From positions 1-15,503 of the forward strand of contig JAUHWK010000050.1 of NCBI GenBank assembly GCA_030424555.1: a stretch of DNA of 15,503 bases. The letters run 5' to 3'. This DNA is from a bacterium. GTDB taxonomy: Bacteria > Myxococcota_A > UBA796 > GCA-2862545. Both the position numbers and the translations under genes were made by a program. Shown here piece after piece: positions 2 through 14,896 of the stretch (the stretch's first letter is position 1; the number at the start of each line of letters is the position of its first letter). The notes beneath the pieces were generated by a model. It ran no database searches. It was not told where the DNA came from and saw nothing but the letters and a program-made list of their open reading frames with translations.

Positions 2-832
2 CCGGAGCGGTGGATGTTCCACGGGCCAGCGTTCCAGGGCATCGTCGATCTGGGTCCCACGGGTGCGGACGGGATCGAGGGCGCCGTCGTGTCGCTGCCG
101 ACGCCGGGTGCGACGATGGACAACGTCGGCCAGGTGTTCGGGTTCTGGGGGTTCGAGCGCCTGGATCAGGATGGACTGGGCTTCCCGGCACGCATCGGTC
201 GGATGACGTTCCACGGCCCGATCCCCGAGCCGGGGGCGCGGCTGGAGGTGCGTGCGTGGATCGACGGCGTCACCCCGGCGGCGTACCGCGGCGCGATGGA
301 GGTCCAGCACCGGGGCGTGGTGTGGTGCACCATCGACGGCTGGGAGAACCGGCGGTTCGAGACCGACGACGTCGTGTTCCCCTTCCTGCGAAAGCCGGGC
401 GTCCACGGGCTCGCGGAGCCCCTGGGAGACGGCGTGTTCGGCGTGCGGGAGCGCTGGCGGACGGCCGCGAGCCGCGAGCTGTTGATCCGTCGCTACCTGG
501 ACCGCACCCACCTCGCGCGCTGGGAGCAGGTGGCGCCGTGGGACCGGCGTACCTGGGTGCTGCGCCGGGTGGCGGCGTGCGACGCGGTCCGCGCCTGGCT
601 GTGGGATGACGGCCACGGACCGCTGTTCCCGATCGAGGTCCAGGTGGACGATGCGCCGGATGGCGGCCTCGTGGTCCACACCCCCACCGGCCGGGACCTG
701 CGGGTGGTGGTGCAGGTCGGGGACGGGGTCGCGGTGGCGGCGGTCGCCGAGGGAGAGGTCCCGACGTTGGGACCGGATGCGCTGGCGTTGGCTGGCCGCG
801 ACGACGACGACGACACCCACGCGGTTGCGTGA
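2..832 (+). CDS. Partial CDS (5' end outside window): C-terminal region of a hotdog-fold dehydratase-like protein, possibly the DH region of a PKS/fatty-acid-synthase-like protein
   Basis: Frame 2 is open from the window edge (pos 2) to TGA 830-832. Segment RIGRMTFHGPIPEPGARLEVRAWI fits the hotdog pattern (RFxxPVxPGDxLxxEVE of FabZ/PKS-DH). Strong GC3 bias. Lies immediately upstream of an ACP gene. Family assignment is from motif memory only. Confidence 0.4.
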   Translation, partial: PERWMFHGPAFQGIVDLGPTGADGIEGAVVSLPTPGATMDNVGQVFGFWGFERLDQDGLGFPARIGRMTFHGPIPEPGARLEVRAWIDGVTPAAYRGAMEVQHRGVVWCTIDGWENRRFETDDVVFPFLRKPGVHGLAEPLGDGVFGVRERWRTAASRELLIRRYLDRTHLARWEQVAPWDRRTWVLRRVAACDAVRAWLWDDGHGPLFPIEVQVDDAPDGGLVVHTPTGRDLRVVVQVGDGVAVAAVAEGEVPTLGPDALALAGRDDDDDTHAVA

Positions 833-847
833 GGTCCGGAGGACGGC

Positions 848-1114
848 ATGAGCGAGAGCACCCTGCACGCGATCACCGGCATGATCGGCGAGGTCCTGGG
901 CGACGAGATGGTGGACGAGCCCATCACCATGGAGACCTCGTTCGCCGACGACCTGGAGATCGAGAGCATCGAGCTGGTTCAGCTGGCCGAGCTGGTCGAG
1001 GCACGGTGGGGCGAGAAGGTCGACTTCAACGCCTGGATCGCAGGACAGTCGATCGACGACGTGATCTCGCTCACCGTCGGGGACCTCGTCACGTTCGTCG
1101 ACTCGTGCCTCTGA
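848..1114 (+). CDS. Stand-alone acyl/peptidyl carrier protein (88 aa)
   Basis: ATG 848 is preceded by GGAGG (838-842, 5-nt spacer). An 88-aa acidic four-helix-type protein with FADDLEIESIELVQL, i.e. a candidate phosphopantetheine-attachment Ser in an ExS(I/L) context in place of the classic DSL. Stop TGA 1112-1114. Confidence 0.7.
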   Translation: MSESTLHAITGMIGEVLGDEMVDEPITMETSFADDLEIESIELVQLAELVEARWGEKVDFNAWIAGQSIDDVISLTVGDLVTFVDSCL

Positions 1115-1866
1115 TCGACGGACCGGCAGGGGCGCTGCACGTCGTGGACGTGGGGCCGGGGGGCCCTGGCACGCCGCTGGTGATGCTGCACGGCCTGCTG
1201 CTGGGCAACGTGGCGAGCTGGTACTTCACCGCGGCGCCGACGCTCGCCCGGTCTCGGCCGGTGCGTCTGTACGACCTGCGGGGCCACGGGCGCAGCGCGC
1301 GGCCCGCCAGCGGGTACGATCCAGACACGATGGCGGACGATCTCGACGCGGTCGTGGCCGATCTCCCCGGTCCGATCGACCTCGTGGGCCACAGCTACGG
1401 GGCGCGGGTGGCGCTGGCGTGGGCCGCCCGCAACCCCGGCCGGGTCCGGCGGATCGTGCTGGTGGAGATCCCCGGTCGAACCGGGGCGAACGCGGAGATC
1501 TCGGCGTTCTTCGAGGCGGGGCCCGAGGCGATGGTCGCGGCCCTCCCCGAGGGACTCCGTGCGGCGGTCGCGAATGGCCGGCGTCAGGCGCGGCGCTTGC
1601 TCACAAACCTCGCGGGGCTCGCCACCCAGACCACCCTGCTCGCGGACCTGGGCTCGGGAGGCGACGTCCCCGACGCTGTCGTCTCCGCGTGTACCCACCC
1701 AGTCCTGGTGGTGGTGGGGGCGTCGTCGGCGTGTGCCGACGATGGCCGGGCCTTGGCGTCGCGGCTCGCCGACGCGCGGGTCGAGGTTCTGCCGGGCGGG
1801 CACTACCTGCACCTCGATGCCACCGCCGCCCTCACCGAGACCATCGGAGCGTTCCTCGATGGCTGA
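1105..1866 (+). CDS. Alpha/beta-hydrolase-fold protein, thioesterase-like (paralog 1)
   Basis: HG oxyanion region LVMLHGLL. Nucleophile elbow VGHSYGARVA (G-H-S-x-G). C-terminal catalytic His in LPGGHYLHLD. About 253 aa, typical of type II thioesterase-like hydrolases. Start is uncertain: GTG 1105 overlaps the ACP stop, GTG 1144 is an alternative. The ORF-track start at 829 is an artefact that overlaps the ACP in another frame. Stop TGA 1864-1866. Confidence 0.7.
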   Translation: MPLIDGPAGALHVVDVGPGGPGTPLVMLHGLLLGNVASWYFTAAPTLARSRPVRLYDLRGHGRSARPASGYDPDTMADDLDAVVADLPGPIDLVGHSYGARVALAWAARNPGRVRRIVLVEIPGRTGANAEISAFFEAGPEAMVAALPEGLRAAVANGRRQARRLLTNLAGLATQTTLLADLGSGGDVPDAVVSACTHPVLVVVGASSACADDGRALASRLADARVEVLPGGHYLHLDATAALTETIGAFLDG

Positions 1867-2644
1867 GATCACCCCCCACGACGTCACCCTGCACGTGCAG
1901 ACCACGGGCTCGGGATCCCCGGCGGTCCTGTTCCTGCACGGCCTCGTGATGGACAACCTGTCGAGCTGGTACTTCACCGCCGGGACCCGGGTCGCGCGGG
2001 ATGGCGCCACCGCGGTGTTGATGGACCTGCGGGGGCACGGCCGGAGTGAGCGGCCGGCGACCGGCTACGGCGTGGAGGTCCTGCTGGCCGACATCGTCGG
2101 GGTGCTCGACCACCTCGGCCACGCGCAGGTCGTGGTCGCGGGCAACAGCTTCGGCGGACAGCTCGCCGCGGCCCTCGCGATCGCCCACCCCGAGCGGGTG
2201 CAGGGGGTCGTGCTGGTGGACGCCCACCTGGGCGCGGAGGGCTGGGGGGATGCGATGGCGTCGACCCTTTCCCTCACGGGCGAGGCGCGTGACACCATGA
2301 TCGCGACCCACTTCCAGGACTGGCTGGGGCGCCACAGCACGCGCAAGCGCACGCGGCTCGCCGACACGGCGCGGGCGCTGGTGGAGGGCACCACGTTGGT
2401 CGCCGACCTCCAGGCGTCGCCGGGGCTTGAGGACGACGCGATCGCCCAGTGGACCATGCCGGTCCTCGCCCTGTACGGACAGGACAGCGACCTGCGGGAC
2501 GAGCCCGACCGGCTGCGGCGGCTCGTGCCCCACGCGGACGTGCGGGTGTTCGAGGGCGCGACCCACTCGCTGATGTGGGAGCGAACGGCCGAGGTCGTGG
2601 ACGCGATCGCGGGTTTTGTGGCGGGGTTCCGATGCGAAGGGTGA
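1859..2644 (+). CDS. Alpha/beta-hydrolase-fold protein, thioesterase-like (paralog 2)
   Basis: ATG 1859 overlaps the upstream stop (ATGGCTGA). Clear paralog of the upstream gene: both have LHGL...N..SWYFTA and DLRGHGRSxRPAxGY. Nucleophile elbow here is AGNSFGGQLA (G-N-S-x-G); catalytic His in FEGATHSLMWE. The ORF-track N-terminal extension from 1559 is not supported. Stop TGA 2642-2644. Confidence 0.75.
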   Translation: MAEITPHDVTLHVQTTGSGSPAVLFLHGLVMDNLSSWYFTAGTRVARDGATAVLMDLRGHGRSERPATGYGVEVLLADIVGVLDHLGHAQVVVAGNSFGGQLAAALAIAHPERVQGVVLVDAHLGAEGWGDAMASTLSLTGEARDTMIATHFQDWLGRHSTRKRTRLADTARALVEGTTLVADLQASPGLEDDAIAQWTMPVLALYGQDSDLRDEPDRLRRLVPHADVRVFEGATHSLMWERTAEVVDAIAGFVAGFRCEG

Positions 2645-3813
2645 TGATCGTTGTGCCCCCGCTGGTGGGCCACATCCAGCCCACGGTCGCCCTCGGCCAG
2701 GCCTTGTTGGCCCGCGGACACGACGTGGTGTGGGTGGGCTACCCCACGCGGCTCGAGGGGCGGGTTCCGCCGGGAGGGCGCCTGCATGCGCTCCAGCACG
2801 GGATGGACGATGCCGCGCTCGCGGCCGTCAAGGCGCGGGGCCTGGGGCTTCGTGGGGCGGCAGCGTTCAAGTTCTTGTGGGAGGACCTGTTCTTCCCGCT
2901 GTCCCGCGCGATGCTGGACGGCGTGGCCGAGGCCGTGGCGGCCGAGCAGCCGGACGTGATCGTCCACGATCAGCAGGCGTTCGCGGGCGCCCTCGTCGCA
3001 CGCCGAGCGGGGATCCCGCTGGTGACGAATGCGGCGACGTCGGCCCAACTCTCGGATCCGTTCGACAGCCTTCCTCAGTTTCGAACATGGCTTCAGGACG
3101 GGATGGCGTCCTTGGCCGAGGCGGCAGGATTGCCGGCCGATCCGAGCCAGGTGGCGTCCGACACCGCGATCCTGGCCTGGTCGACCCGTGCGCTGGTCGG
3201 CGACGCGGCGCTTCCACCCCAGACGGTGCTGGTGGGGCCGGCGCGGGGGCCGAGGGCGGACGCCCCGCCGTTCGCGTGGGACCGACTGGACGATCGCCCC
3301 CTGGTGTTCGTCAGCCTGGGCACGGTGTCGATCGACATCGGCGCGCGCTTCTTCGAGGCGGCGGCCACGGTGTTCGCGGAGCGGCCTCACCTCCAGGGCG
3401 TGTTGGTGGCGCCGCCCGAGGCGGTGCAGGCCCCCGACAACCTGCTCGTGGCCTCCTACGTCCCCCAGCTCGACCTGCTCGCGCGGTCGACGGCGGCCGT
3501 GTGCCACGGGGGCCACAACACCGTGGTCGAAGCACTGAGCGAGGGGCTCCCGCTGGTGGTGGCGCCGGTGCGCGACGACCAGCCGGTGGTCGCGGCGCAG
3601 GTCGAGGCGGCGGGCGCAGGGGTGCGGGTTCGGTTTGGACGCATCCGGGCACAGACCCTGGGGGCGGCGCTGGATCGGGTCCTGCAGGACGGGGCGTTCC
3701 GGGCGGCGGCGGGCCGGGTGCGGGACAGCTTCGCGGCCGCGGGGGGCCCGGCGCAGGCGGCGGACGTCGTCGAGCGCGTCATGCGCGAAAGGTCGACGCC
3801 ACCTCGTCCATGA
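2632..3813 (+). CDS. GT1-family UDP-glycosyltransferase (MGT / macrolide-glycosyltransferase-like)
   Basis: N-terminal MRRVMIVVPPLVGHIQPTVALGQALLARGH is the GT-B N-domain GH(I/V)xP motif. C-terminal CHGGHNTVVEALSEGLPLVVAPVRDDQP matches the UDPGT/PSPG-type nucleotide-sugar binding signature. Start is ATG 2632 (overlaps upstream gene by 13 nt) or ATG 2644 (TGATG junction). Stop TGA 3811-3813. Confidence 0.8.
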   Translation: MRRVMIVVPPLVGHIQPTVALGQALLARGHDVVWVGYPTRLEGRVPPGGRLHALQHGMDDAALAAVKARGLGLRGAAAFKFLWEDLFFPLSRAMLDGVAEAVAAEQPDVIVHDQQAFAGALVARRAGIPLVTNAATSAQLSDPFDSLPQFRTWLQDGMASLAEAAGLPADPSQVASDTAILAWSTRALVGDAALPPQTVLVGPARGPRADAPPFAWDRLDDRPLVFVSLGTVSIDIGARFFEAAATVFAERPHLQGVLVAPPEAVQAPDNLLVASYVPQLDLLARSTAAVCHGGHNTVVEALSEGLPLVVAPVRDDQPVVAAQVEAAGAGVRVRFGRIRAQTLGAALDRVLQDGAFRAAAGRVRDSFAAAGGPAQAADVVERVMRERSTPPRP

Positions 3814-4978
3814 GGGCGTCCATCCGGCCGTCGGAGGCGAGGTTGACCGGGATGCTGGCGAGCAGGTCGAACCCGTCGGGCGTGCCGACCAGCGCCATGA
3901 ACAGCGAGGTGACGGGGGTCCCGGGGGGGATGAACACCACCTGTCGCCCGGTGAAGCCGGCGCCGTGCAGGGGGGAGGGGTCCATCCGGCCGAGGTTGGA
4001 GAGCACGCCGGTGCTTCCGTAGCGCCCGGTCTTGCCGTGCTGGCGTCCGCGGTGGCGGGCGACCGCGCGCATCAGCCACAGTGGAACGTGGCGTAGGCCG
4101 TCGGCGGGGAGCAGGCTCGCGGCGGGCTGGTGGGCGGCGATCGCCTGCACGAGGGCGTCGCCGAGGTCGTGGCTGTCCTGCCCGGGCTGGACCTCCAGCG
4201 AGATCATCCCCGTGAGGTTTCCGGTGGAGCGCACACTGGGGTGGTCGCGGCGGAGATCGGCGGGGATGTCGAACCGGATCGGGGCGTCGTCGCCGTGGTG
4301 GGCGCGGGCGTGGGCGGCGACCGCGTGGGCCACGCGGGGCAGGACGGCTTTGTGCTTTCCGGGGATCGATCGGCGCGTCCAGACCACCTCGTGGGACGTG
4401 CCAGTGGGGCGGCCGGTGGGCGCCACGTAGCGGTCTTCGGGGGGCGTCATCGGCTCCAGGCCTTCCGGGCGGGGCAGGTCGCCGTCGAAGGTGGTGTCGG
4501 CGTGGCCCACGCACGGCTCGCCGCGGAGCGCGCGGAACACGTCCTCCGCAAAGAACTGGGTTCCGCGGCCGTCCATCGTGGCGTGGGCGGTGCGGAAGGC
4601 GACCCGGGGGGTGGGGCCGTGCATCAGGACCACCTCGGTGGTGGGCCCGTGGTGGGGATCGAGGGGCCGCTGGAGCCAGGGGGCGCCGTCGCCCGATCGG
4701 CCGTCCCATGGGCTGCCGTCGACCTCGGTGACCGGGGGGACAGGACCCCGGTCGTCCCAGACGGTCCAGCCGACCCAGCCGCGACGGACGACCCGGGCGC
4801 CGGGGTTGGCGCGTGTGGCCTCGGCGACGGCCTCACGCCAGCGCGCGGCGTCGAGCGTGCCCTCGCCCTCGACGATCATCTGGTTGTTGAACGGGGCGAA
4901 CAGCTCGTGGGCGACGACCCAGGCGCGCTCGATGCCGGACATCGGACGACGGTAGGCGGGGACGAGGGTGGTGGTCAT
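3779..4978 (-). CDS. Condensation-domain-like acyltransferase (PapA5 / WS-DGAT-like), 399 aa
   Basis: ATG (rc of 4976-4978) overlaps the stop of the upstream methyltransferase (ATGA). Contains RTAHATMDGRGTQFF, a variant of the HHxxxDG catalytic motif of condensation/PapA/WS-DGAT acyltransferases in which the second (catalytic) His is retained. Length and N-terminal region are similar in layout to PapA5-type enzymes. Stop is rc of 3779-3781. Confidence 0.6.
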   Translation of the reverse strand: MTTTLVPAYRRPMSGIERAWVVAHELFAPFNNQMIVEGEGTLDAARWREAVAEATRANPGARVVRRGWVGWTVWDDRGPVPPVTEVDGSPWDGRSGDGAPWLQRPLDPHHGPTTEVVLMHGPTPRVAFRTAHATMDGRGTQFFAEDVFRALRGEPCVGHADTTFDGDLPRPEGLEPMTPPEDRYVAPTGRPTGTSHEVVWTRRSIPGKHKAVLPRVAHAVAAHARAHHGDDAPIRFDIPADLRRDHPSVRSTGNLTGMISLEVQPGQDSHDLGDALVQAIAAHQPAASLLPADGLRHVPLWLMRAVARHRGRQHGKTGRYGSTGVLSNLGRMDPSPLHGAGFTGRQVVFIPPGTPVTSLFMALVGTPDGFDLLASIPVNLASDGRMDALMDEVASTFRA

Positions 4979-5844
4979 GCGTCCTCAGGCGCCATGCGGG
5001 CGGTGAACACGCGCTGCTCGGTGCGGGTGTCGAGGTGGGGGACGGCCCACGCGTCGGGCGCGTCGGAGGGGGCGAGGGTGCGAACCTCCGAGAACCCGGC
5101 GGACCGCAGGTCGTCGAGCACATCGGCCTGCGATGTGGGATTTTCGGCCAGGCCTTCGCCCCCGGTGAACCGTCGCATCCAGGCGCCGAGCAGGCGGGCG
5201 ACCCAGCCGGGCGGCGGCTTGTCGGCGGGCGGCACGTAGTCGAACGCGACCCAGCCCCCGGCGGGCCGCAGGCGGGCGGCGATCCGGTGCAGGAGGTCGC
5301 GGCGCGCGGCGTCGTCCAGGTACATCAGCAAGCCCTCGGCGAGCACCATCGTGGGGCCGTCGGTCCCGGTGAGGTCGACGAGGTCGGCGCCGCGCAGGTC
5401 GGCGGGGAGCCGGGTGAGGGTGGGACGCGCGGACACGGCCTGTCCCTGAGGATCCCGGGCCAGCAGGGCGGCCTTGTACGAGACGACCTCCGGCAGATCG
5501 ACCTCGGTCCAGGCGACGTCGTGGGTGGCGGTGAACGCGGTGCCGCGGGGGGACAGGCCCGCCGCGAGCTCGAGGACGGTGGTGGCGCCTTGTGCCAGCG
5601 CTTCGTGGACCAAGGCGTCCAGCATCACGTGCCGCTGGACGAGCCCGTGCCGCAGGCTGGGGGCGTTGCGGACGAACCACCCGGCGATGCGCAGCACGCC
5701 CTCGACCGTGCCGAACACCCGGCGGGTGGCGACGGACGCGTAGCGATCGGCACCCGGCCGCTCGGACCAGGCCCACACCCCGGCGGTGTACAGCGCGGTC
5801 ACCGGGAGACCGCCACGGGGGACGGGGGGATCGACGGGGGCCAC
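4975..5844 (-). CDS. Class I SAM-dependent methyltransferase (TIGR00027 / leucine-carboxyl-MT-like putative O-methyltransferase)
   Basis: GTG start (rc of 5842-5844) with GGAGG 4 nt upstream. Motif I VLELAAGLSPRG (cf. VVxLGAGLDTR) and EVDLPEVVSYKAALL (cf. EVDQPxVIxFK) match the actinobacterial TIGR00027 methyltransferase family. 289 aa. Confidence 0.75.
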   Translation of the reverse strand: MAPVDPPVPRGGLPVTALYTAGVWAWSERPGADRYASVATRRVFGTVEGVLRIAGWFVRNAPSLRHGLVQRHVMLDALVHEALAQGATTVLELAAGLSPRGTAFTATHDVAWTEVDLPEVVSYKAALLARDPQGQAVSARPTLTRLPADLRGADLVDLTGTDGPTMVLAEGLLMYLDDAARRDLLHRIAARLRPAGGWVAFDYVPPADKPPPGWVARLLGAWMRRFTGGEGLAENPTSQADVLDDLRSAGFSEVRTLAPSDAPDAWAVPHLDTRTEQRVFTARMAPEDA

Positions 5845-5913
5845 GGCACCTCCGAGGCGACGGCGCGATGACGCCGGCTCGGGGTCCGGCTACCCGCCTC
5901 GCGGGAGGTGTGC
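5845..5913. promoter_or_regulatory. Divergent 69-bp intergenic region, presumably carrying back-to-back promoters for the MT-acyltransferase operon and the PFK-2/FBPase-2 gene
   Basis: This is the only non-coding gap between divergently oriented genes in the left half. It contains RBSs for both genes (GGAGG on each strand). No -10/-35 boxes can be called confidently in this GC-rich sequence. Confidence 0.3.
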
Positions 5914-7161
5914 ATGGCGTGGCGTCCGGTCGACCTCGATCCGCTGGTGTTGGTGATGGTGGGCAAGCCCGCCCGCGGCAAGACGTTCACCGCCCGGCGG
6001 CTGGCCCGCTACCTGACCTGGCTCGGCTACCGGGCCCGGGTGTTCAACGTCGGGACCTACCGGCGGCGGCACCTGGGGGCGGGTCAGCCCGCGTCGTTCT
6101 TCGACCCCGACAACGCCGAGGGGGTGGCCGCCCGGGAGACGATGGCCCGCGAGGCGGTCGATGACCTGATCACCTGGATCGGGGACGGGGGGGAGGTGGG
6201 CCTGCTCGACGCCACCAACGGCCGGCGAGACCGACGGGACTGGGTGCGGCGCGCCTGCGAGGAAGCGGGCCTGCGCGTGCTGTTCATCGAGCTGTCGGTG
6301 GAGGACGACGGGGTCATCGAGTCCAACGTGCGCGGCACGAAGATCCACGGGCTGGACTACGAGGGGTGGGTGGCCGACGACGCCGTCCGCGACTTCATGC
6401 AGCGCATCGCCGCGTACGACCGCGCCTGGCAGCCGCTGGACCCCGCGGAGGGCGACCACATCCGCCTGATCGACGGCGGGCGGCGCATTGAAGCCCAGGG
6501 CCTGCACGGACACCTGGCCGGTCGGCTCGCCACGTTCTTGCTCCACCTGCACCACGGCACCCGCTGCATCGTCCTGTCCCGACACGGGGAGAGCCGGTTC
6601 AACCTGGAGCATCGGATCGGGGGGGACGCGGAGCTGTCGGACCGGGGCGCGGCCTACGCCCGCCGCCTCCGGGACTGGGTCCATCGCCCAGGCCAGACCG
6701 ATCTGGACGGCCTCGCCGTGTGGACCAGCACGTTGCGGCGCACGATCGCCACCGCGGCGGACCTGGGGGCCCCCACCCGTCCCTGGAAGCTGCTGGACGA
6801 GATCGACGCCGGCGTGTGTGACGGCCTGACCTACGACCAGGTCCACACGCGCTTTCCCGACGAGTTCGCCGCCCGGCGCGCCGACAAGTTCAGCTACCGC
6901 TACCCACAGGGCGAGTCCTACCAGGACGTGATCGACCGCCTCGATCCGGTGGTCCTGGAGCTCGAACGCCAACAGCGCCCGCTGATGATCGTCGCCCACC
7001 AGGCGGTGCTGCGCGTGCTGTACGGCTACCTCGCGGGGGTCCACCCCCACCGGATCCCGCACCTCGAGATGCCGCTGCACACGGTGATGCGGGTCACGCC
7101 GGGGGCGTACGGCACCACCGAGACCCGAGAAGTGCTGGGGCCGGAGGCCGTCCAGACCTGA
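5914..7161 (+). CDS. Bifunctional 6-phosphofructo-2-kinase / fructose-2,6-bisphosphatase (PFK-2/FBPase-2)
   Basis: GGGAGG at 5903-5908 then ATG 5914 (GTG 5908 is an alternative). Kinase domain: LVMVGKPARGKTFTARRLARYLTWLGYRARVFNVGTYRR (cf. eukaryotic VMVGLPARGKTYIS..LTRYLNWIG...FNVGEYRR), LLDATNGRRDRR (cf. FDATNTTRERR) and LFIELSVEDDGVIESN. Phosphatase domain: IVLSRHGESRFNLEHRIGGDAELSDRG (RHGE phospho-His motif, cf. [24 protein letters not shown]) and IVAHQAVLRVLYGYL (cf. VICHQAVMRCLLAYF). Confidence 0.8.
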   Translation: MAWRPVDLDPLVLVMVGKPARGKTFTARRLARYLTWLGYRARVFNVGTYRRRHLGAGQPASFFDPDNAEGVAARETMAREAVDDLITWIGDGGEVGLLDATNGRRDRRDWVRRACEEAGLRVLFIELSVEDDGVIESNVRGTKIHGLDYEGWVADDAVRDFMQRIAAYDRAWQPLDPAEGDHIRLIDGGRRIEAQGLHGHLAGRLATFLLHLHHGTRCIVLSRHGESRFNLEHRIGGDAELSDRGAAYARRLRDWVHRPGQTDLDGLAVWTSTLRRTIATAADLGAPTRPWKLLDEIDAGVCDGLTYDQVHTRFPDEFAARRADKFSYRYPQGESYQDVIDRLDPVVLELERQQRPLMIVAHQAVLRVLYGYLAGVHPHRIPHLEMPLHTVMRVTPGAYGTTETREVLGPEAVQT

Positions 7162-7167
7162 TCGGGC

Positions 7168-10100
7168 CTACTCCTCCCGGGCGCGGTCGGCGCGCGCGGC
7201 GAGGTCGGCGATCGCGCTGGCGACCGTGCGGCGGAGGTCCTGGGTCCAGGCCTCGTGGGCGTCCTTGGGCAGGTGGGCCCGGGCGGAGGCGAGCATGTGG
7301 ACCGTGAGCATCTCGATCACGGACAGGGCCGCGGCCAGGTTGGGATCGCCGTCGGACGGGACACGGCGGAGATCGCCGCCCACGGCGCGTCGGGCCTGAT
7401 CCAGGAGCCGCGCCCGGCGGGCGTCGTGGTCGAGGGCGCCGGGGTCGCCTTGGGAGGGCCGGACGGCGTCGCGCAGGGACCGCAGCTCGGCGAGCATGTC
7501 CTGCATCGCGCCGGGGACAGCGGGGGCGGGAGCGGGCGTGGCGGTGGCGAGGTGGGTTGCGATGGCCTGCAAGGGCCCCGCGACGGCCTGGAGATCGGGC
7601 GGCGGGGCCTCGGCCAGCTGACCGTGGACGGCGCGGAGGGCGCGCGCGAGGTCGGCCAGGTGCTGGGTGGTGCCGCGGTCGGACGCCATGGTCTCGCGAA
7701 GCGCCGAGAGCTGCTCGTGGAGGCCGGCGAGGGCGTGCGGCACGGCGGGGTCTCGCAGGCCGGGGCCGAGGGTGCCGACGGCCTCCACCAGCCCGGACAG
7801 CACGCCGACCACGCGGGTGGCTGGGTCGTCGCCGTCGCCGCCCATGAGGCGCTGACGCCGGGTCTCCTGCCGGATGGCGTCCAGGCGCTCGGCACCGACC
7901 TCGTCGAGGCGTCCTCGGAGCTCCGCGAGCCGGAGGAGGTTGAACTCGGCCCCGGTGGTGAGGGTCTGCGACTCGCCACGGTAGTGGTCGTCGATCAGCC
8001 GGTCGACCTCCTCGTCGCGCAGGGCGGGCACGATGCGCTGCGCCAGCTTGGCCATGTTTCGGTAGCTGCCCTGGAGCTGGAACCGGGGCTCGGTCCGGAA
8101 CCGGTCCTCCATCGCAGCGCTGCGCACGTACTCGGCGTTGACCCGGAGCAGGACGTCGCGGCACCGGAACAGGTGCCGCAGCACGGTGAGGATCTCGGAG
8201 CGCTCGACGGCGCTGTAGTCGTGCGACAGCGCGGACGGCGGCAGCTCCTCGCCCTGCGCCATGCGCACCAGGGCATAGACGTCGGCCTGGGCCCGGTCGG
8301 CGAGCGGCTGCAGGACCGGGTTGGACGTGAGCGCGTTCTCGACGAAGGACAGGGCGAACACGTCCTCGCGCCCGTCGAGGACGTCGCCGAGGTTGTAGGT
8401 GTCGGCGCGGTTGGCGAGCATGTCGGGCACCTGGAACCGGTCGCCGGACTCCGTGTACGGGTTGCCGGCCATCACGACCGCGAACTTGCGTCCCCGCAGG
8501 TCGTAGGTGCGGGTGCGCCCGTTCCACACGCCCTCGATGCGGCGGCTGGCGTCGCACAGGGAGATGAACTTCTGGAGCAGCTCGGGGTTCGTGTGCTGGA
8601 TGTCGTCCAGGTACAGCAGGACGTTGTCGCCGAGCTCGAGCGCTAGGTTGATCTTGTCGACCTCCTGCCGGGCGGTGGCGTTGGGGGCCTCTTCGGGGTC
8701 GAGGCTGGTGACGCCGTGGCCGAGGGCCGGGCCGTTGACCTTGACGAACACGAGGCCGAGGCGGTCGGCGACGTACTCCATCAGGGTGGTCTTGCCGTAG
8801 CCGGGGGGGCTGACCAGGAGCAGCAAGCCCATCAGGTCGGTGCGCTTGGCGTCGCCGGCGGCGCCGATCTGCTTGGCGAAGTTGTCGCCGATCAGGGGCA
8901 GGTAGGCGTCCTGGATGAGCTTGTTGCGCACGAACGCGCTCATCACCTTGGGCTCGAGCTCGTCGATGCGCAGGCGGTGTCGCCAGCGCTCGAGGACGTC
9001 GTGACGGGTGGCCCGCCAGGCGCGGAAGCCCGGCACGCGCTCGGTGGCGAAGCGGGTGAGGCGGTCGAGGAAGGGGGCGAGGGACAGGTCCATCGCGCCG
9101 TCGCGGACGCGCGGGTGGCGCCCCAGCAAGCCCTGGACCGTGGTGCGGGCCTCGGTGGCCTCCACCTGGATGTCGACCTGGCGCTCGACCAGCCACCACA
9201 CCGCGGTCTCGAACGCGACGCCGGGATCGGCCGGGGCATCGGCCGTGCTGGCGATCGCCTCGCACCAGGCGTGCAGGACCTGGAGGTGCTCGACGGGACG
9301 GTCGGACAGCGCCCGGAGGCGATCGTCGAACGCGCCGCGGCCGCCATGGTCTTCGATCCAGCGGTCGAGGCGGGCGCGCAGGTCCTGGGCGGCGGACGAC
9401 ACGGCCATGCGGGCGGGCTCGGTGGCGAGGGCGTCGACCAGGGCCGCCCCGGCGGCGGGGAGGTCGGACGCCCACTGGCTGGGGCCGCCCGGGACGTCGA
9501 ACCCGATCTCCTGGAGCCACGCGCGGAGGACACCGGTGAGCTCGGTGGCGAAGGCCTCGGCGGCGCCGCCTGGACCCAGGGTGTCGCGGATCCGCACGAG
9601 CGTGCGGGCCCGGGCCTGCCACGCGCCCCACGGTGCGTCGGTGTGCAGCCCCCGAAACAGCATCGCCAGGGCGCGGGCGCGGGTGCCAAAGCGCTGCCAC
9701 CCGGCGGCCTGGCGGAGCTGGACGAGTGCCTTGAGGATCGCGGCGGCATCGACGTCGTGGACGCCGCGATCGTACCCCTCGTCCCAGGCCTCCGCGGTGT
9801 GCGAGCGCACGATGTCGAGCAGGCCGGCTTCGGTGAGAAGGGCCTGCTCCAGCGTGCTGACGTCGAGGCCGTCGCCGCGCTGGGCGGCATCGAGGACGCG
9901 CCAGGCCAGGTACTCGGCGCGGTAGACCGCCTCGGTCTCGCTGACGAGGGCCTGGTCCCAGTACGCACGGGCCGCGAGGACGTCGGGATCGTCGAGGCGC
10001 TGCCGGAACTGGGTGCCGGTGAGGGTGAGGGCGACGTGCAGGTCGTCGCCCTCGCCGTCGGGGACGAGCGCCAGCTCGAACGGCTGGGTGTTCACGGTGA

Positions 10101-12729
10101 ACTTGTGGCGCCCGAGGCTGATCAGCCGGTCGGCGTCGAACAGCTCGGCGTCGTCGCGCAGCGCGCGGAGGGCATCCTGGCGGGTGCGGCGAAGGCGTCC
10201 CCGGAGATCCTCGGCGCGCACGGTGTCGCCCAGGGAGACGAGCTCGTCGGCGAGGGCGCGCAGGCGGCCCACCATGGGGTCGGCGGCGAAGAAGCTGTTC
10301 AGGGCGTCTTCGTCGGTGTGGGTCCGGGCCCGTCGGGCGAGGCCCTCCAGGATCCGATCGGCGGCCGCGACCCGGGCGGCGACCCGCCGGTTCCGGTCGT
10401 CCAGCAGGCGCTGTCGGCGGGCGGCGAACGCGCTGTGGACGTCCTCGCGCTGGGTGGTGAGGGCTGGGAGGAACGCATCCGACGCGCCGAACCGGGCCTC
10501 GAGCTCCTCGACCTGGAGCAGGAGGCGCGACAGCTGTTCGTCGCACGCCTCGGGGGTGTCGCACCGGGCCAGGGCGGACTGGACGGCCTGGGACAGCAGC
10601 TTGATCTGCGCGGAGAACTCGGCCTCACCCTCCTTGGCCGCCAGGGCTTCTTCGCGTTGCTCGAGCGCGAGCCGGACCCGGTTGGCGGTGCTGAACACCT
10701 CGCCGATGCGATCGAGCAGGGCGGCCTTGCGGGTGGGATCGTCGACCTCGAGGCCCGCCACCACCTCGGCGAGCAGGTCCACGCCCTCGGCGGTCTGGGT
10801 GAGGCGCTCGGCCCAGGGCTCCAGCTCCAGGGTTCGTCGAACCCCTGGCAGGGCGGCCTCGACCTCGGCCAAGCCCTGGATCAACGGTGCGAAGGCGGCC
10901 TCGCCCTCCAAGAACCGGATCGTGGCCTGCCCGACCCGTTCGAACCGCGTCTCGGCCTCGTCGCCCAGCGCCTGCAAGGCGGCGCGATCGGCGAAGCGGA
11001 CGTCCTGCAGCGTGATCAGGTGCCCGCGGTGTCGGCGGAGACGGGTCATCGCGCCGAGCAGGGCGTCGATGCTGGTGAGGCGCTCGGTGCGCACCGCGTC
11101 CATCAGCGAGGCGTGCTCCTCGCGGGCCGCGCGCAGGGTGTCGGCGGCGCGGCGCTGCAGGACCAGGACCTTTTCGAACTCGTCGACGACCTGCTCGGTC
11201 GCTTGCAGGGTGGCCTCGACCGCCTCGGCGAGGCCGTGCATCGAGGCATCGGACGCCCAGTAGTGGGCGTCGAGGAAGCGCTGGCACCCGGCGGCGAGCT
11301 CGTCGAAGGCGGCTCGGGTGGGCTCGGGGTGGGTGGCGAGGCGGGCCAGGGTGAGGGCGTCGGACACCCCGCGCACCAGCTCGGCGTTGCCCACGCGGGC
11401 GATCAGGTCGTCGCCGTGGGCGGCGGGGTCGACGTGCTCCGGGTGGACGAACGGGGTGCGCCAGAGCTGGATCGGGTGGACGCGGGTGGGGTCGGGCTGG
11501 GCGCGGAACACGGCCAGCGTGCCGTCGTCGAACAGGGACCAGCCGTGGGCGTGGATGGGGGTGCGGACGTCCTTGCGGATGAGGTTGTAGCTGTACAGGG
11601 CGTACAGGCCGTCGGACGCGCGGTGGAACACGTACAGGACGTCTTCGCCGTTGGGGGCGTCGAGGCGCCGGACGAACCGCATCCCGTCGTGCTCGGCGTC
11701 GAACACCTTGTGCTGGCCGTCGCGCAGGACGTACCCGCCGGGGAACAGGATGCCGTGGTCCTCGGGCAGGGTGACGCAGCTGGCGCCGAGGGCGTCGATG
11801 CGCAGGACCTGCCGGGTGGTCCGCACGAACACGAGGTGGCGGGTGACGGCCTCGTTGAAGGGCGTGATGCGCAGCAACAGCAGGGAGCCGCGGTCGGCGT
11901 AGGCGATGGCGGCGTCGTCGAGAGACTGGTTGGGGTCGTCGACGGGCTCGGAGTACACGCCCTCCCCGGTCTCCGTGTTGTCCTCGACCTTGACCGTGAG
12001 GTCGCCGCCGACGGTCTCGACGAACACGGTGTCGAGCACGTTGACGTGGGGGTGCCGGCCGCGGACGTGGTCGTCGCGGGTGGTGGCGGTCCAGGTGAAG
12101 TCGTGGGCGGGCGGGAACACGTGGTCGCGCTCGCCGCGGTTGTCGACGTAGGTGGGGGTGTCGTCGGCGGTGAGATCCCACCGGAGGACCTTGACGTCCT
12201 CGGGCCGCTTGCCGATGCGGAACACGGCGAGCAGGCGTCCGTCGACGCGGCGCAGCTGGGTGAGCCGGGCGTCCGCGTAGTACTGGAACAGCTCGTTGAA
12301 CTCACGGTCGAACGCCGGGCCCTCGAGGAAGGACCGGGCGCTCTCGGCCGCGGGGCGGAAGGTGGGGACGTCGCCGCTGCGGTCGATGGTGTACAGGCCG
12401 AACACGTCGCCGGGCGAGGTGGTCTGCTTGAGGCCGAGGAACACCTCGTAGCCGACCAGCAGGTGGTCCCCGATCGGGACCATGTCGTGGGGGGTGTTGG
12501 CGTGCTCGGTGCGCACGCGCTCCTGGCCGAGCACCTCGAACGACACCGAGCCGAACCGATCGACCCGCTGGGCGTTGAGGGTGTCGGCGGCGGCCTTGAC
12601 CGCGGAGGCTCGGTCGGCGAGGCGGCGGCGCAGGACGCCGTAGTTGCCCTGGTCGACCGCGGCGTCGGTGCCCTCGGGGGCGGGATCGGACGGGGCGTCT
12701 TGGGTGGGGTCGTCAGCTCGGTCGGCCAT
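7168..12729 (-). CDS. Giant (1853 aa) protein with an embedded MoxR/AAA_5-type AAA+ ATPase module; function unknown
   Basis: ATG (rc of 12727-12729) with GGGAGG 8 nt upstream. Balanced amino-acid composition, unlike the G/A/V-rich antisense ORF. The AAA module is annotated separately. The N-terminal ~1250 aa and the low-complexity C-terminal ~280 aa match nothing I can recognise. Stop is rc of 7168-7170. Confidence 0.75.
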   Translation of the reverse strand: MADRADDPTQDAPSDPAPEGTDAAVDQGNYGVLRRRLADRASAVKAAADTLNAQRVDRFGSVSFEVLGQERVRTEHANTPHDMVPIGDHLLVGYEVFLGLKQTTSPGDVFGLYTIDRSGDVPTFRPAAESARSFLEGPAFDREFNELFQYYADARLTQLRRVDGRLLAVFRIGKRPEDVKVLRWDLTADDTPTYVDNRGERDHVFPPAHDFTWTATTRDDHVRGRHPHVNVLDTVFVETVGGDLTVKVEDNTETGEGVYSEPVDDPNQSLDDAAIAYADRGSLLLLRITPFNEAVTRHLVFVRTTRQVLRIDALGASCVTLPEDHGILFPGGYVLRDGQHKVFDAEHDGMRFVRRLDAPNGEDVLYVFHRASDGLYALYSYNLIRKDVRTPIHAHGWSLFDDGTLAVFRAQPDPTRVHPIQLWRTPFVHPEHVDPAAHGDDLIARVGNAELVRGVSDALTLARLATHPEPTRAAFDELAAGCQRFLDAHYWASDASMHGLAEAVEATLQATEQVVDEFEKVLVLQRRAADTLRAAREEHASLMDAVRTERLTSIDALLGAMTRLRRHRGHLITLQDVRFADRAALQALGDEAETRFERVGQATIRFLEGEAAFAPLIQGLAEVEAALPGVRRTLELEPWAERLTQTAEGVDLLAEVVAGLEVDDPTRKAALLDRIGEVFSTANRVRLALEQREEALAAKEGEAEFSAQIKLLSQAVQSALARCDTPEACDEQLSRLLLQVEELEARFGASDAFLPALTTQREDVHSAFAARRQRLLDDRNRRVAARVAAADRILEGLARRARTHTDEDALNSFFAADPMVGRLRALADELVSLGDTVRAEDLRGRLRRTRQDALRALRDDAELFDADRLISLGRHKFTVNTQPFELALVPDGEGDDLHVALTLTGTQFRQRLDDPDVLAARAYWDQALVSETEAVYRAEYLAWRVLDAAQRGDGLDVSTLEQALLTEAGLLDIVRSHTAEAWDEGYDRGVHDVDAAAILKALVQLRQAAGWQRFGTRARALAMLFRGLHTDAPWGAWQARARTLVRIRDTLGPGGAAEAFATELTGVLRAWLQEIGFDVPGGPSQWASDLPAAGAALVDALATEPARMAVSSAAQDLRARLDRWIEDHGGRGAFDDRLRALSDRPVEHLQVLHAWCEAIASTADAPADPGVAFETAVWWLVERQVDIQVEATEARTTVQGLLGRHPRVRDGAMDLSLAPFLDRLTRFATERVPGFRAWRATRHDVLERWRHRLRIDELEPKVMSAFVRNKLIQDAYLPLIGDNFAKQIGAAGDAKRTDLMGLLLLVSPPGYGKTTLMEYVADRLGLVFVKVNGPALGHGVTSLDPEEAPNATARQEVDKINLALELGDNVLLYLDDIQHTNPELLQKFISLCDASRRIEGVWNGRTRTYDLRGRKFAVVMAGNPYTESGDRFQVPDMLANRADTYNLGDVLDGREDVFALSFVENALTSNPVLQPLADRAQADVYALVRMAQGEELPPSALSHDYSAVERSEILTVLRHLFRCRDVLLRVNAEYVRSAAMEDRFRTEPRFQLQGSYRNMAKLAQRIVPALRDEEVDRLIDDHYRGESQTLTTGAEFNLLRLAELRGRLDEVGAERLDAIRQETRRQRLMGGDGDDPATRVVGVLSGLVEAVGTLGPGLRDPAVPHALAGLHEQLSALRETMASDRGTTQHLADLARALRAVHGQLAEAPPPDLQAVAGPLQAIATHLATATPAPAPAVPGAMQDMLAELRSLRDAVRPSQGDPGALDHDARRARLLDQARRAVGGDLRRVPSDGDPNLAAALSVIEMLTVHMLASARAHLPKDAHEAWTQDLRRTVASAIADLAARADRAREE
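8000..8900 (-). other. MoxR/AAA_5-like AAA+ ATPase module within the giant protein (approx. residues 1280-1570)
   Basis: Motif positions in plus-strand coordinates: Walker A ~8791-8815 (LLLLVSPPGYGKTTL), Walker B ~8596-8622 (VLLYLDDIQH), sensor-1 region ~8440-8500 (FAVVMAGNPYTESGDRFQVPDMLANRAD, cf. MoxR ATQNPxExEGTYxLPEAQLDRF), lid ~8024-8086 (QLQGSYRNMAKLAQRI, cf. MoxR SPRA...LLRAA). Boundaries are approximate. Confidence 0.6.
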
Positions 12730-12758
12730 CGCGGCGGACCTCCCTCGGGTGCAGGGGG

Positions 12759-12783
12759 GCCGGCCCGAGGGGATCGGGCCGGC
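12759..12783 (-). promoter_or_regulatory. GC-only 9-bp stem / 7-nt loop hairpin in the flotillin-to-ATPase intergenic region, with no U-tract; possible attenuator or RNA-stability element
   Basis: Plus strand gccggcccg-aggggat-cgggccggc (12759-12767 pairs with 12775-12783). Lies 17 nt after the flotillin stop (12801) and ~30 nt before the ATPase start codon. On the mRNA the sequence after the stem is CCCCCCUGC, so this is not a canonical intrinsic terminator. Confidence 0.3.
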
Positions 12784-12800
12784 GGGTCAGCGGCGAAGGC

Positions 12801-14789
12801 TCAGGCGTCGTCGTCGGTGCTGCCGGACAGCGCGTCGAGCACGGTGCCGACCGCGCCCTTGGCCGCGTCGCTGCGGGACAGGAACACGTCGAGGGCCTGA
12901 CCCAGCGAGGCGGCCTTGACGATGCTGTCGAGGAACTGGCCGTCGCCGCCCATGATCTGGATGTCGGCCTTGCCGAACGCCTCGGCGAGGACGGACGCCT
13001 GCTCCTCGGCGATCTTCTCCTGGGCGGCCAGCCGCGCCAGGGCGATCTTCTCGTCGAGGTTGAGCTTCATCCGGAACTCCTCGTGGTCCTTGGCGGGACC
13101 CTCCATCTTCTGCATGGCGAGCAGCTTCTCGGCGAGTCCGGTGGCCTCGGCGGCCATGCGGGCCTTGATCGCGGCGGCCTCGGCGGCCCCCATCTTCTCG
13201 ATCGCGATGGCGTCGGCTTCCTTGCCCTGGGCCTCGGCGACCATCTTCTCGCGCTGGAGCATGGCCTCGAGCTCGATCTCCTTCTCGCGAACGGCCATCG
13301 CGGCCAGGCCCTTGGCCTCGTCGCCCTTGGCCTCGGCGACCTTCTGCTCCGCGGTGACGCGGGCGGTCGCCATGCCCATCTTCTCGGTGGCGACGGCGTC
13401 GGCTTCCTTGACGCGGACCTTGGCGAGCCCTGCGGCGGCCTCCTCGGCTTGCACGCCCTCGGCAATGCGGGCCTTGGCCTTGGCGACGCGCTCGGCTTCC
13501 TCGAGCTTGGCGTTGGCGAGGGTGAGGGTCTCGCGGGCCTGGGCCTCGGCGGCCTTCTCGCGCGCCTCGGCGGCCTTGATCTCCTTGATCAGGAGCTCCT
13601 CGGCCTGGGCCTCGGCCTCGATGACGTGGACGTCCTTGTTGCGGGTGGCCTCCATGGTGGCGCGCAGGTCCTTGATGCGCTCCTCCTCCTCGGCCACGGT
13701 CTTGTCGATCGCGATGCGCGTGCGGACGACCTCGGCGATCTCCTTGCGCTTGACCTCCAGCTCCATCTCCTTGTCGATCTGCTGGCGCTCGACTTCACGC
13801 TCGCGGCCGATCACCTCGACCATGCGGTCGCGCTCGACGTGCTCGGCCTTGATCGCCACGACGCGCTCACGGTCCTTGTCTGCGACCTCGACCTGGCGGC
13901 GCTTGTTGAGGTCGCTGACCTCGATCTGCTCGGCGGCCTGGATGCGGGCGAGCTCGGCGCGCTGGTGCTCCTCGGCTTCGACCTTGGCGGTCTCGGCGGC
14001 CTCGCGGGCCTTGACCGTGGCGATCTCGCGCTGCTGGCGTGCCTCGGCGTCGGCGCGGCGGCGGCGCAGCTCGAGGATCTGCTCCTCGGCTTCGAGGTTC
14101 TGTCGGGTCTCCTCCTTCTTGTAGTCCTGGGCGAGCTGGTTGGTCTGCAGGTTCTGCTTGACCGTGATCTCGGTGATCTTGCGGATGCCCTGGGCGTCGA
14201 GGATGTTGTTTCGATCGAGCTTCTCGAGCGGGGTCTGCTCGAGGTAGTCGATGGCGGCGTCGTCGAGGACGTAGCCGTTGAGGTCGCGGCCGATGACCTC
14301 GATGATCCGGTCCTTGAAGTCGTCTCGCTGGGTGTACAGCTGCTCGAAGTCCAGCTTCTTGCCGACGGTCTTGAGGGCCTCGGAGAACTTGGCGACGAAC
14401 AGCTCCTCGAGGGTGGTCTGGTCGGACGCGCGGGCGCAGCCGATGCTCTGGGCCACCTTGAGCACGTCCTCCTTGGTCTTGTTGACCCGGACGTAGAAGC
14501 TGACCTTGATGTCGGCCCGGATGTTGTCGTGGCAGATCAGGCCTTCGTGGCCCGATCGGGCGATCTCGATGGTCTTGACCGAGATGTCCATGACCTCGGC
14601 CCGGTACACGATCGGGACGACCACGGCGCCGGTGAACGTGACGGCCGGCTCGGCGGTCATCTTGTTGACGATGAGGGCCTTGCCCTGGTCGACCTTGCGG
14701 TAGAACCGCGCGACCATCACGAGCGCGCCGGCGAAGAACACCGCCAGGCCCAACCCGACGAGAAGGGTGAAGATCATGGCTTCGGACAT
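12801..14789 (-). CDS. Flotillin-family SPFH/band-7 membrane protein (YqiK/FloT-like), 662 aa
   Basis: ATG (rc of 14787-14789) with GGAGG 7 nt upstream. N-terminal TM helix (IFTLLVGLGLAVFFAGALVMVA) followed by YRKVDQGKALIV, typical of flotillin SPFH domains. Long central Glu/Ala/Lys/Arg coiled coil with EA repeats. C-terminal flotillin-like tail. Stop is rc of 12801-12803. Confidence 0.9.
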   Translation of the reverse strand: MSEAMIFTLLVGLGLAVFFAGALVMVARFYRKVDQGKALIVNKMTAEPAVTFTGAVVVPIVYRAEVMDISVKTIEIARSGHEGLICHDNIRADIKVSFYVRVNKTKEDVLKVAQSIGCARASDQTTLEELFVAKFSEALKTVGKKLDFEQLYTQRDDFKDRIIEVIGRDLNGYVLDDAAIDYLEQTPLEKLDRNNILDAQGIRKITEITVKQNLQTNQLAQDYKKEETRQNLEAEEQILELRRRRADAEARQQREIATVKAREAAETAKVEAEEHQRAELARIQAAEQIEVSDLNKRRQVEVADKDRERVVAIKAEHVERDRMVEVIGREREVERQQIDKEMELEVKRKEIAEVVRTRIAIDKTVAEEEERIKDLRATMEATRNKDVHVIEAEAQAEELLIKEIKAAEAREKAAEAQARETLTLANAKLEEAERVAKAKARIAEGVQAEEAAAGLAKVRVKEADAVATEKMGMATARVTAEQKVAEAKGDEAKGLAAMAVREKEIELEAMLQREKMVAEAQGKEADAIAIEKMGAAEAAAIKARMAAEATGLAEKLLAMQKMEGPAKDHEEFRMKLNLDEKIALARLAAQEKIAEEQASVLAEAFGKADIQIMGGDGQFLDSIVKAASLGQALDVFLSRSDAAKGAVGTVLDALSGSTDDDA

Positions 14790-14896
14790 GCGGTGGCCTC
14801 CGGGGCGGCGTCACCACGCCACGGGGCGCGGTCGGGTGGTCAGGGACGGGGATGGAGATGGGGCGTGCACCCGGACGCGCCGGCTGCGTGGATCCC

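Follow-up and report, generated by a model that had tools for sequence, protein, structure and literature searches.

Does a bacterial gene that resembles the bifunctional enzyme of fructose-2,6-bisphosphate (Fru-2,6-P2) turnover encode a protein able both to make and to degrade this metabolite, and has it anything to do with the polyketide genes beside it? The question is raised by contig JAUHWK010000050.1 (assembly GCA_030424555.1), a stretch of 15,503 bp with a GC content of 72.5% that was analysed whole and is called the window throughout. An earlier note on this DNA had pointed to an open reading frame (ORF) at positions 5914–7161 of the + strand as a 6-phosphofructo-2-kinase/fructose-2,6-bisphosphatase (PFK-2/FBPase-2) with both active sites apparently intact. 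From sequence comparison and a structural model, we find it likely that the gene encodes a full-length, bifunctional PFK-2/FBPase-2 that consists of a minimal core only.

The PFK-2/FBPase-2 gene and its two-domain product

The ORF encodes 415 amino acids, and its GC content at the three codon positions (0.75/0.47/0.94; third-position GC, or GC3, of 0.94) follows the pattern typical for genuine genes of the contig, indicating that it is a real gene. A strong Shine–Dalgarno (SD) sequence, GGGAGGT, can be read at positions 5903–5909 (+), 4 nt before the ATG at 5914; a GTG at 5908 is an alternative start. When the intergenic region was aligned with that of two syntenic relatives (L015 and L017), GGAGGTG and the start codon alone were kept. 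Because of the SD spacing and this conservation, ATG 5914 was taken as the start, and the coordinates proposed in the earlier note hold.

Pfam searches located two domains on the one polypeptide, kinase then phosphatase, as had been expected: a 6-phosphofructo-2-kinase domain at residues 10–214 (5941–6555, +; 6PF2K, PF01591, E=5.1e-59, 199.7 bits against a cut-off of 27, covering profile positions 13–221 of 223) and a fructose-2,6-bisphosphatase, or histidine phosphatase, domain at residues 219–401 (6568–7116, +; His_Phos_1, PF00300, E=9.6e-38, 130.2 bits against a cut-off of 21.7). A phmmer search of the PDB matched human PFKFB3 across residues 2–409 (E=1.5e-108), followed by PFKFB2, PFKFB1 and rat testis PFKFB4 at 1e-96 to 1e-102, and the phosphatase half matched the rat liver FBPase-2 domain (1c7z, E=4.3e-58). 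The strength of these matches is far beyond chance. An AlphaFold2 (AF2) model of the monomer, built with 49 bacterial homologues, reached a predicted local distance difference test score (pLDDT) of 94.5 and a predicted template modelling (TM) score of 0.92. In Foldseek comparisons it aligned with PFKFB1-4 at TM 0.86–0.92 across 408–423 columns, which takes in both domains and their mutual packing, while the phosphatase domain matched 1tip with a target-normalised TM of 0.97.

The protein thus shares domain order, fold, P-loop and catalytic Asp and Lys with animal PFKFB1-4 (PFKFB3 2AXN, 4D4J and 6IBZ; PFKFB1, 2 and 4 1K6M, 5HTK and 1BIF), as well as the Arg/Thr/Tyr set for fructose-6-phosphate (Fru-6-P), the RHG phospho-histidine, the second His, the Glu donor and the Arg/Lys/Tyr set for the 6-phosphate. 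Unlike these enzymes, it carries no regulatory extension at either end. It begins 9 residues before the first core strand, ∼25–35 residues shorter than PFKFB3 in that part, and ends ∼6 residues past the PFKFB3-aligned region, so that the C-terminal regulatory tail is missing and with it the PKA, AMPK and PKB phosphorylation sites of the animal isozymes. A 4-residue insertion after residue 181 of PFKFB3 is also missing. Single-domain histidine phosphatases (CobC alpha-ribazole phosphatase, PspA phosphoserine phosphatase, GpmB and PhoE) have the His_Phos_1 fold and the RHG/His/Glu chemistry in common with the C-terminal half; in contrast to the window protein, they lack a kinase domain and the residues for the 6-phosphate of Fru-2,6-P2, they are 20–28% identical to it, and it falls under the cut-offs of their NCBIfam models.

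Both active sites are retained and conserved across the bacterial family

Residues were mapped by aligning positions 9–409 of the protein to chain 4d4j_A (residues 34–435 of 520, native PFKFB3 numbering), with an identity to human PFKFB3 of 43.6% across 397 aligned positions, and their conservation was counted in 123 bacterial homologues and 105 eukaryotic representatives. The PFKFB3 residues chosen are those that we take, after UniProt Q16875 and the PFKFB3 structure papers, to bind ATP, Fru-6-P and Fru-2,6-P2 or to act in catalysis. All of them are identical in the window protein, the sole exception being Cys155, which is replaced by Val129. Alignment to the human enzyme thus finds the catalytic residues of both domains retained, and at the level of residues it bears out the claim that both sites are intact in a bacterial two-domain protein. 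The motifs on which that claim had been based are all present (GKPARGKT at residues 17–24, FNVGTYRR at 44–51, DATNGRRDRR at 99–108, RHGES at 223–227 and AHQAV at 361–365).

In the kinase domain, the P-loop GKPARGKT (G17–T24; 5962–5985, +) aligns with G42–T49 of PFKFB3. Among the 123 bacterial sequences, G17, G22 and K23 show little or no variation, and the Thr alternates conservatively with Ser (88 T, 35 S). The ATP site is completed by N138, K143 and Y399, all kept. The catalytic Asp, D99, corresponds to D125 of PFKFB3, and K143 to its catalytic Lys, K169; the Walker A sequence GxPxRGK[ST] and these two residues are found in 122–123 of the 123 bacteria. The Fru-6-P site (R50, R51, R74, T101, R107, R164 and Y168) is likewise complete, and R50, R74, T101, R107, R164 and Y168, equivalent to R75, R99, T127, R133, R190 and Y194 of PFKFB3, are each present in 115–123/123.

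The phosphatase site keeps R223, H224, N230, E296, Y307, H362, Q363 and R367. The RHG motif (6580–6588, +), made up of R223, the phospho-acceptor H224 and G225, aligns with R253-H254-G255 of PFKFB3, the proton donor Glu296 (6799–6801, +) with E323, and the second catalytic histidine, His362 of AHQAV (6997–6999, +), with H388. These residues, together with N230 and R367, occur in every one of the 123 bacterial sequences. The site for the 6-phosphate of Fru-2,6-P2 (R321, K325 and Y336) is kept too; with Y307 and Q363, these residues correspond to Y334, R348, K352, Y363 and Q389 of PFKFB3 when taken in the order Y307, R321, K325, Y336, Q363, and are found in 117–123/123. At Arg276 (6739–6741, +) the protein has the liver-type residue, shared by 122 of the 123 bacterial and 100 of the 105 eukaryotic sequences, where PFKFB3 has a Ser to which its weak phosphatase is attributed.

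Leaving aside the T/S alternation in the P-loop, the mapped positions are invariant or conserved at ≥93% across the 123 bacteria, and they are more uniform than in the eukaryotic representatives, among which catalytic residues have been lost sporadically (the kinase Lys169, for example, is kept in 74/105). The bacterial clade has no such loss. The near-invariance of both sets of positions indicates that both active sites, and with them presumably both activities, are under purifying selection. Since the substrate-binding residues match those that bind Fru-6-P and Fru-2,6-P2 in PFKFB3, synthesis and breakdown of Fru-2,6-P2 is the best reading of the enzyme. Architecture, fold and residue integrity are direct observations, and from them both catalytic activities may be predicted.

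A predicted route for setting Fru-2,6-P2 levels

By analogy with the animal enzymes, the kinase domain, through its P-loop, would transfer the gamma-phosphate of ATP to O2 of Fru-6-P, yielding Fru-2,6-P2. The histidine-phosphatase domain would remove the 2-phosphate through a phospho-His224 intermediate; Glu296 is the likely proton donor, and His362 and Arg223 would stabilise the transition state. The enzyme may in this way set the cellular level of Fru-2,6-P2. As there are no tails to carry phosphorylation switches, the balance between kinase and phosphatase must rest on the levels of substrates and effectors or on expression.

Fru-2,6-P2 would then be expected to act as a regulator in the host bacterium. 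For class I FBPase, Fru-2,6-P2 is a substrate analogue that occupies the active site, and on general knowledge alone the candidate targets are class I FBPase or a pyrophosphate- (PPi-) or ATP-dependent phosphofructokinase (PFK). No gene for a Fru-2,6-P2-sensitive PFK, PPi-PFK or FBPase was detected in the 15.5-kb window or beside the homologue in 18 related loci, and the literature searched offered no usable precedent for a bacterial FBPase inhibited by Fru-2,6-P2.

A large family of bacterial homologues, mostly from Myxococcota

Against 5.8 billion proteins, the sequence had 1206 matches at E≤1e-10, and the top 120, each a 90%-identity cluster, were examined. All 120 are two-domain proteins of 394–453 aa, about 50–71% identical to the window protein. 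The sources named among them are Myxococcota, Myxococcales, Sandaracinaceae, Sorangiineae, Byssovorax and 'Deltaproteobacteria' metagenome-assembled genomes (MAGs); a few bear an Alpha- or Proteobacteria label, although among these isolates one is itself tagged 'MYXO'. The same, mostly Myxococcota, picture emerged from 14 GTDB species-representative loci. With more than 120 bacterial 90%-identity clusters, named ones being almost all Myxococcota, the homologues can hardly be called uncommon, as the earlier note had put it. A Desulfovibrio desulfuricans homologue was grouped with the bacterial family from mentions in reviews only.

Annotation of the family is uneven. NCBI already titles some MAG homologues '6-phosphofructo-2-kinase/fructose-2,6-bisphosphatase' and others 'histidine phosphatase family protein', and the JGI title is 'broad specificity phosphatase PhoE/predicted kinase'. 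NCBIfam gave 13 matches to the window protein, all of them single-domain histidine phosphatases and all below cut-off (best TIGR03162, 84.9 versus 162.9 bits); since these single-domain matches fall so far short, we regard the JGI title as under-annotation. The window protein thus adds to a family that is already known, if uncharacterised in bacteria: the searchable literature, queried by enzyme name, by Pfam name and in myxobacterial and Desulfovibrio contexts, yielded no enzyme assay or functional study of any bacterial homologue, in agreement with what the earlier note had said of them.

The Myxococcota MAG homologues are the protein's own family and have the same invariant residues; the window lineage differs in having the gene at the edge of a polyketide synthase (PKS) cluster. 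The nearest relatives, 69–71% identical, are on the metagenomic contigs L015 and L017, and by its sequence the window protein represents a distinct lineage inside the bacterial PFK-2/FBPase-2 family. The host is probably a high-GC, poorly sampled bacterium of the Myxococcota. More than 5000 homologues were found for the 1853-aa DUF3686/DUF7902/AAA protein encoded next to it, and the named top matches come from Myxococcota and Myxococcales MAGs, Polyangiaceae and Pyxidicoccus, the best named one being 55% identical. GC and GC3 of the PFK-2/FBPase-2 gene match those of its neighbours, and its divergence from the L015 and L017 orthologues lies inside the 55–81% identity range of the flanking genes. 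Neither plasmids nor phages yielded a copy of PFK-2/FBPase-2.

Relationship to the eukaryotic enzymes

An exhaustive search of 1.84 billion representatives at 50% identity gave 1015 hits at E≤1e-30, a count that cannot be divided by domain of life. The best 150 of these comprised three short Myxococcota representatives and otherwise longer proteins. Those of the longer representatives that were looked up and have a source name are eukaryotic and come from several supergroups: Acytostelium, Flabellula and Dermamoeba (Amoebozoa), Rhodelphis and Volvox (Archaeplastida), Sodiomyces (Fungi), Pygsuia and Reticulomyxa. Bacteria are probably scarce at this level because their sequences were merged into clusters that a longer eukaryotic protein represents. 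The search was topped by P0121, a protein of 1069 aa, probably eukaryotic, with two complete tandem PFK-2/FBPase-2 units and a low-complexity linker; its rank is explained by the scores of the two copies adding up. Short eukaryotic forms also exist (Sodiomyces alkalinus XP_028466573, 444 aa; Pygsuia, Dermamoeba and Reticulomyxa, 421–432 aa). They resemble the window protein in length and in their two-domain core, with 38–47% identity, but are placed on the eukaryotic side of the tree.

In a neighbour-joining (NJ) tree of 229 sequences and 398 columns, bacteria and eukaryotes fell on opposite sides of a single short branch, with the bacterial clade near the centre. The strict split between the two was recovered in 3/100 and 6/200 NJ bootstrap replicates, and in 108/200 when up to three misplaced taxa were tolerated. 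Mean identity was 57.6% among bacteria (minimum 36%), 42.6% among eukaryotes and 45.7% between the groups, which marks the bacterial clade as a slowly evolving group in the middle of the tree. Bacteria and eukaryotes were not set apart by any internal indel, the bacterial protein corresponding to the consensus core of the family. Rooting by minimal ancestor deviation (MAD) was fully ambiguous (index 1.0); the best roots lay inside the eukaryotic part, a placement that is unreliable given the slower bacterial rate. The bacterial clade is neither sister to nor nested in any single sampled eukaryotic lineage.

Considering the low strict bootstrap, the ambiguous MAD root and the lack of a distinguishing indel, an ancient transfer may have gone in either direction. 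It is conceivable, if doubtful, that Fru-2,6-P2 signalling is not a eukaryotic invention and that the Myxococcota have an ancient functional system with a single early origin shared with the eukaryotic enzyme, possibly through a myxobacterium-like donor before the last eukaryotic common ancestor. In line with an ancient shared origin, the bacterial proteins form an indel-free consensus core, are closer to eukaryotes than eukaryotes are to one another, and attach as one group. The reverse direction, an ancient transfer from eukaryotes to Myxococcota, fits equally well or slightly better.

Genomic neighbourhood

Genes in the window were called by GC3 and then from Pfam, NCBIfam and fold evidence. 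The + strand carries the tail of a PKS dehydratase (2–832), an acyl carrier protein (ACP) of 88 aa (848–1114), two tandem alpha/beta-hydrolases (1111–1866 and 1859–2644) and, as part of the same PKS operon, an EryCIII-like GT1 glycosyltransferase recognised by Pfam (2641–3813). On the – strand follow a 399-aa acyltransferase of condensation fold with an HHxxxDG motif (3779–4978), called from the motif and from AF2 and Foldseek, and an S-adenosylmethionine (SAM) methyltransferase of the LCM/TIGR00027 type (4975–5844). By these sequence and model-based assignments, positions 2–5844 are predicted to be the 3′ end, or edge, of a polyketide cluster. A divergent intergenic region of 69 bp (5845–5913), as the earlier note correctly had it, separates the methyltransferase gene (–) from the PFK-2/FBPase-2 gene (+). 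In L015 the spacer is 76 bp long and in L017 37 bp, and it is unconserved outside the SD sequence. No sigma-70-like promoter was matched in 5700–7400, and no Rfam families or tRNAs were found in the window. Inside the kinase-domain coding sequence (6079–6092, +), a GC hairpin precedes a T-rich run in the manner of a terminator. It is the sole such site in 5700–7400, where chance alone predicts 0.1, and most likely a coincidence.

Searches of Pfam, NCBIfam and PDB sequences gave no match to the 399-aa protein. At least 181 homologues, from Myxococcota, Spirochaetota, Smithella, Desulfomonilia and others, share an invariant HHxxxDG motif with it, and its AF2 model (pLDDT 94.5) matches the condensation (C) domains of nonribosomal peptide synthetases and BAHD-type acyltransferases, best AzeD (8s6l, TM 0.76). 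It appears to represent a stand-alone family resembling C domains. Profiles barely cover this family, 1 of 30 members matching PapA_C and 1 of 30 Condensation. The motif, the fold match and the methyltransferase call together characterise the divergent operon as one of polyketide tailoring and not as a glycosyltransferase cassette. The earlier note had placed such a cassette next to the PFK-2/FBPase-2 gene; the divergent genes are instead a methyltransferase and an acyltransferase, and the GT1 gene sits on the other strand in the PKS operon.

Downstream, a block of three genes on the – strand (7168–15502) is conserved in L015. It consists of a DUF3686, DUF7902 and AAA 'DNA repair ATPase' of 1853 aa (7168–12729), an orphan of 662 aa (12801–14789) and a YqiJ_N-like fragment (14897–15502), the last a weak match (E 5e-4) below the Pfam cut-off. 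Sequence searches with the orphan gave just one match, the SPFH protein QmcA, which was non-significant (E 0.66). Even so, no other gene of the locus is conserved as well, its identity to L015 being 81%. Together the three genes may form a membrane-scaffold module coupled to a giant AAA ATPase. The orphan coincides with a region (∼12500–14500) where the AT skew of the + strand is –0.27 to –0.45 and GC is the lowest in the window (0.66–0.70); its second-codon-position GC of just 0.37 suggests a charged, possibly coiled-coil protein.

Alternative explanations

Several observations weigh against a bifunctional enzyme of Fru-2,6-P2 metabolism. Val129, where the animal enzymes have Cys (Cys155 in PFKFB3), is a minority state, Cys being present in 111/123 bacterial and 91/105 eukaryotic sequences, and this Cys is flagged as an active-site residue by similarity. 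No assay of a bacterial homologue turned up in the literature searched. Moreover, Fru-2,6-P2 is described as absent from bacteria, Desulfovibrio desulfuricans being the single exception, in the passage of PMC9721465 that cites Rider 2004, and its regulation as eukaryote-specific in that of PMC12873801 that cites Michels & Rigden 2006; both papers treat its control of glycolysis and gluconeogenesis as a eukaryotic trait. One could therefore imagine an enzyme that is effectively monofunctional in vivo, with one activity dominant as in PFKFB3 (kinase) or fungal FBP26 (phosphatase), owing for instance to the Cys-to-Val change or to the missing tails. Mammalian tails tune the kinase:phosphatase ratio, and the window protein has none; its liver-type Arg276, furthermore, predicts a robust phosphatase. 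Neither domain, however, has lost a catalytic or substrate-binding residue, the Cys in question is not universally conserved and is presumably not directly catalytic, and the equally strict conservation of both sites throughout the family would be hard to explain were one of them dispensable. We consider a monofunctional enzyme unlikely. That the enzyme uses a different sugar phosphate, as the earlier note had entertained, or that it provides or controls a precursor of the polyketide/glycosyltransferase cluster next to it, is suggested by synteny. The order PKS, ACP, two alpha/beta-hydrolases, GT1, acyltransferase, methyltransferase and PFK2 is kept in the window, L015 and L017 (the upstream gene in the latter two being a ketosynthase-acyltransferase-dehydratase PKS), and the divergent methyltransferase/PFK2 pair recurs on a fourth contig, L016. 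PFK2 stays with this upstream block even in L017, where downstream synteny, kept in L015, breaks. Vertical inheritance alone would nevertheless give such synteny at ∼70% identity. When the context was widened to 14 species-representative loci by GC3-based gene calling and all-vs-all clustering, no neighbour in common with the window and no recurrent metabolic partner was seen beside the homologue in any of these 14 more distant genomes; the neighbours there were unrelated (glutaredoxin/rhodanese, epimerase, serpin, M24 peptidase, DAHP synthase and others). The linkage is thus confined to the closest relatives. The spacer has no conserved element beyond the SD sequence, and the divergent genes are not sugar-activating enzymes. 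GT1 enzymes use nucleoside diphosphate sugars, and all residues that contact Fru-6-P or Fru-2,6-P2 in PFKFB3 are kept and invariant across the family. A role in the cluster is consequently very unlikely, and we attribute the PKS–PFK2 linkage to a gene order passed down by descent, not to a functional tie.

Recent acquisition from a eukaryote, or a contig that is itself a eukaryotic contaminant, would account for the unusually high identity to eukaryotic enzymes (up to 48–50% for the window protein and up to 60% for some bacterial–eukaryotic pairs) and for the MAD roots inside eukaryotes, had these not been confounded by rate as noted. Against it stand a contig of tightly packed, intron-free genes with an SD site and bacterial PKS, ACP and GT1 genes, an ATPase with named homologues in Myxococcota, a composition and a divergence from syntenic relatives indistinguishable from those of the neighbouring genes, and a bacterial clade that is large, internally diverse and not attached to one sampled eukaryotic lineage. 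Signs of such a transfer, for which the earlier note had suggested looking in the phylogeny, were not apparent, and we give this explanation next to no credence. We conclude that the gene is resident and vertically inherited, neither a recent import nor a tailoring enzyme of the polyketide cluster, and hold to a bifunctional PFK-2/FBPase-2 as its product.

Among the distant loci, two Sandaracinaceae-type MAG loci (L002, 5311–7719; L003, 6481–7953) have a serpin-domain gene immediately upstream of the homologue (Pfam Serpin, E=1e-98 in L002), and L013 has a class II 3-deoxy-D-arabino-heptulosonate 7-phosphate (DAHP) synthase just downstream of it. Both belong to families otherwise typical of eukaryotes or plants.

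Significance

The gene in the window is an ordinary member of its family, and the weight of these results lies with the family and not with the locus. A large group of bacterial proteins in which both active sites are conserved more strictly than in eukaryotes argues for real synthesis and breakdown of Fru-2,6-P2 in these bacteria, and it poses a testable question on the place of this metabolite in bacterial physiology. If confirmed, such activity would give bacterial central metabolism a further regulatory metabolite and offer mechanistic studies a minimal, tail-less enzyme. It would have a bearing, too, on the origin of the eukaryotic Fru-2,6-P2 circuit, given that other gene sharing between Myxococcota and eukaryotes has been proposed.

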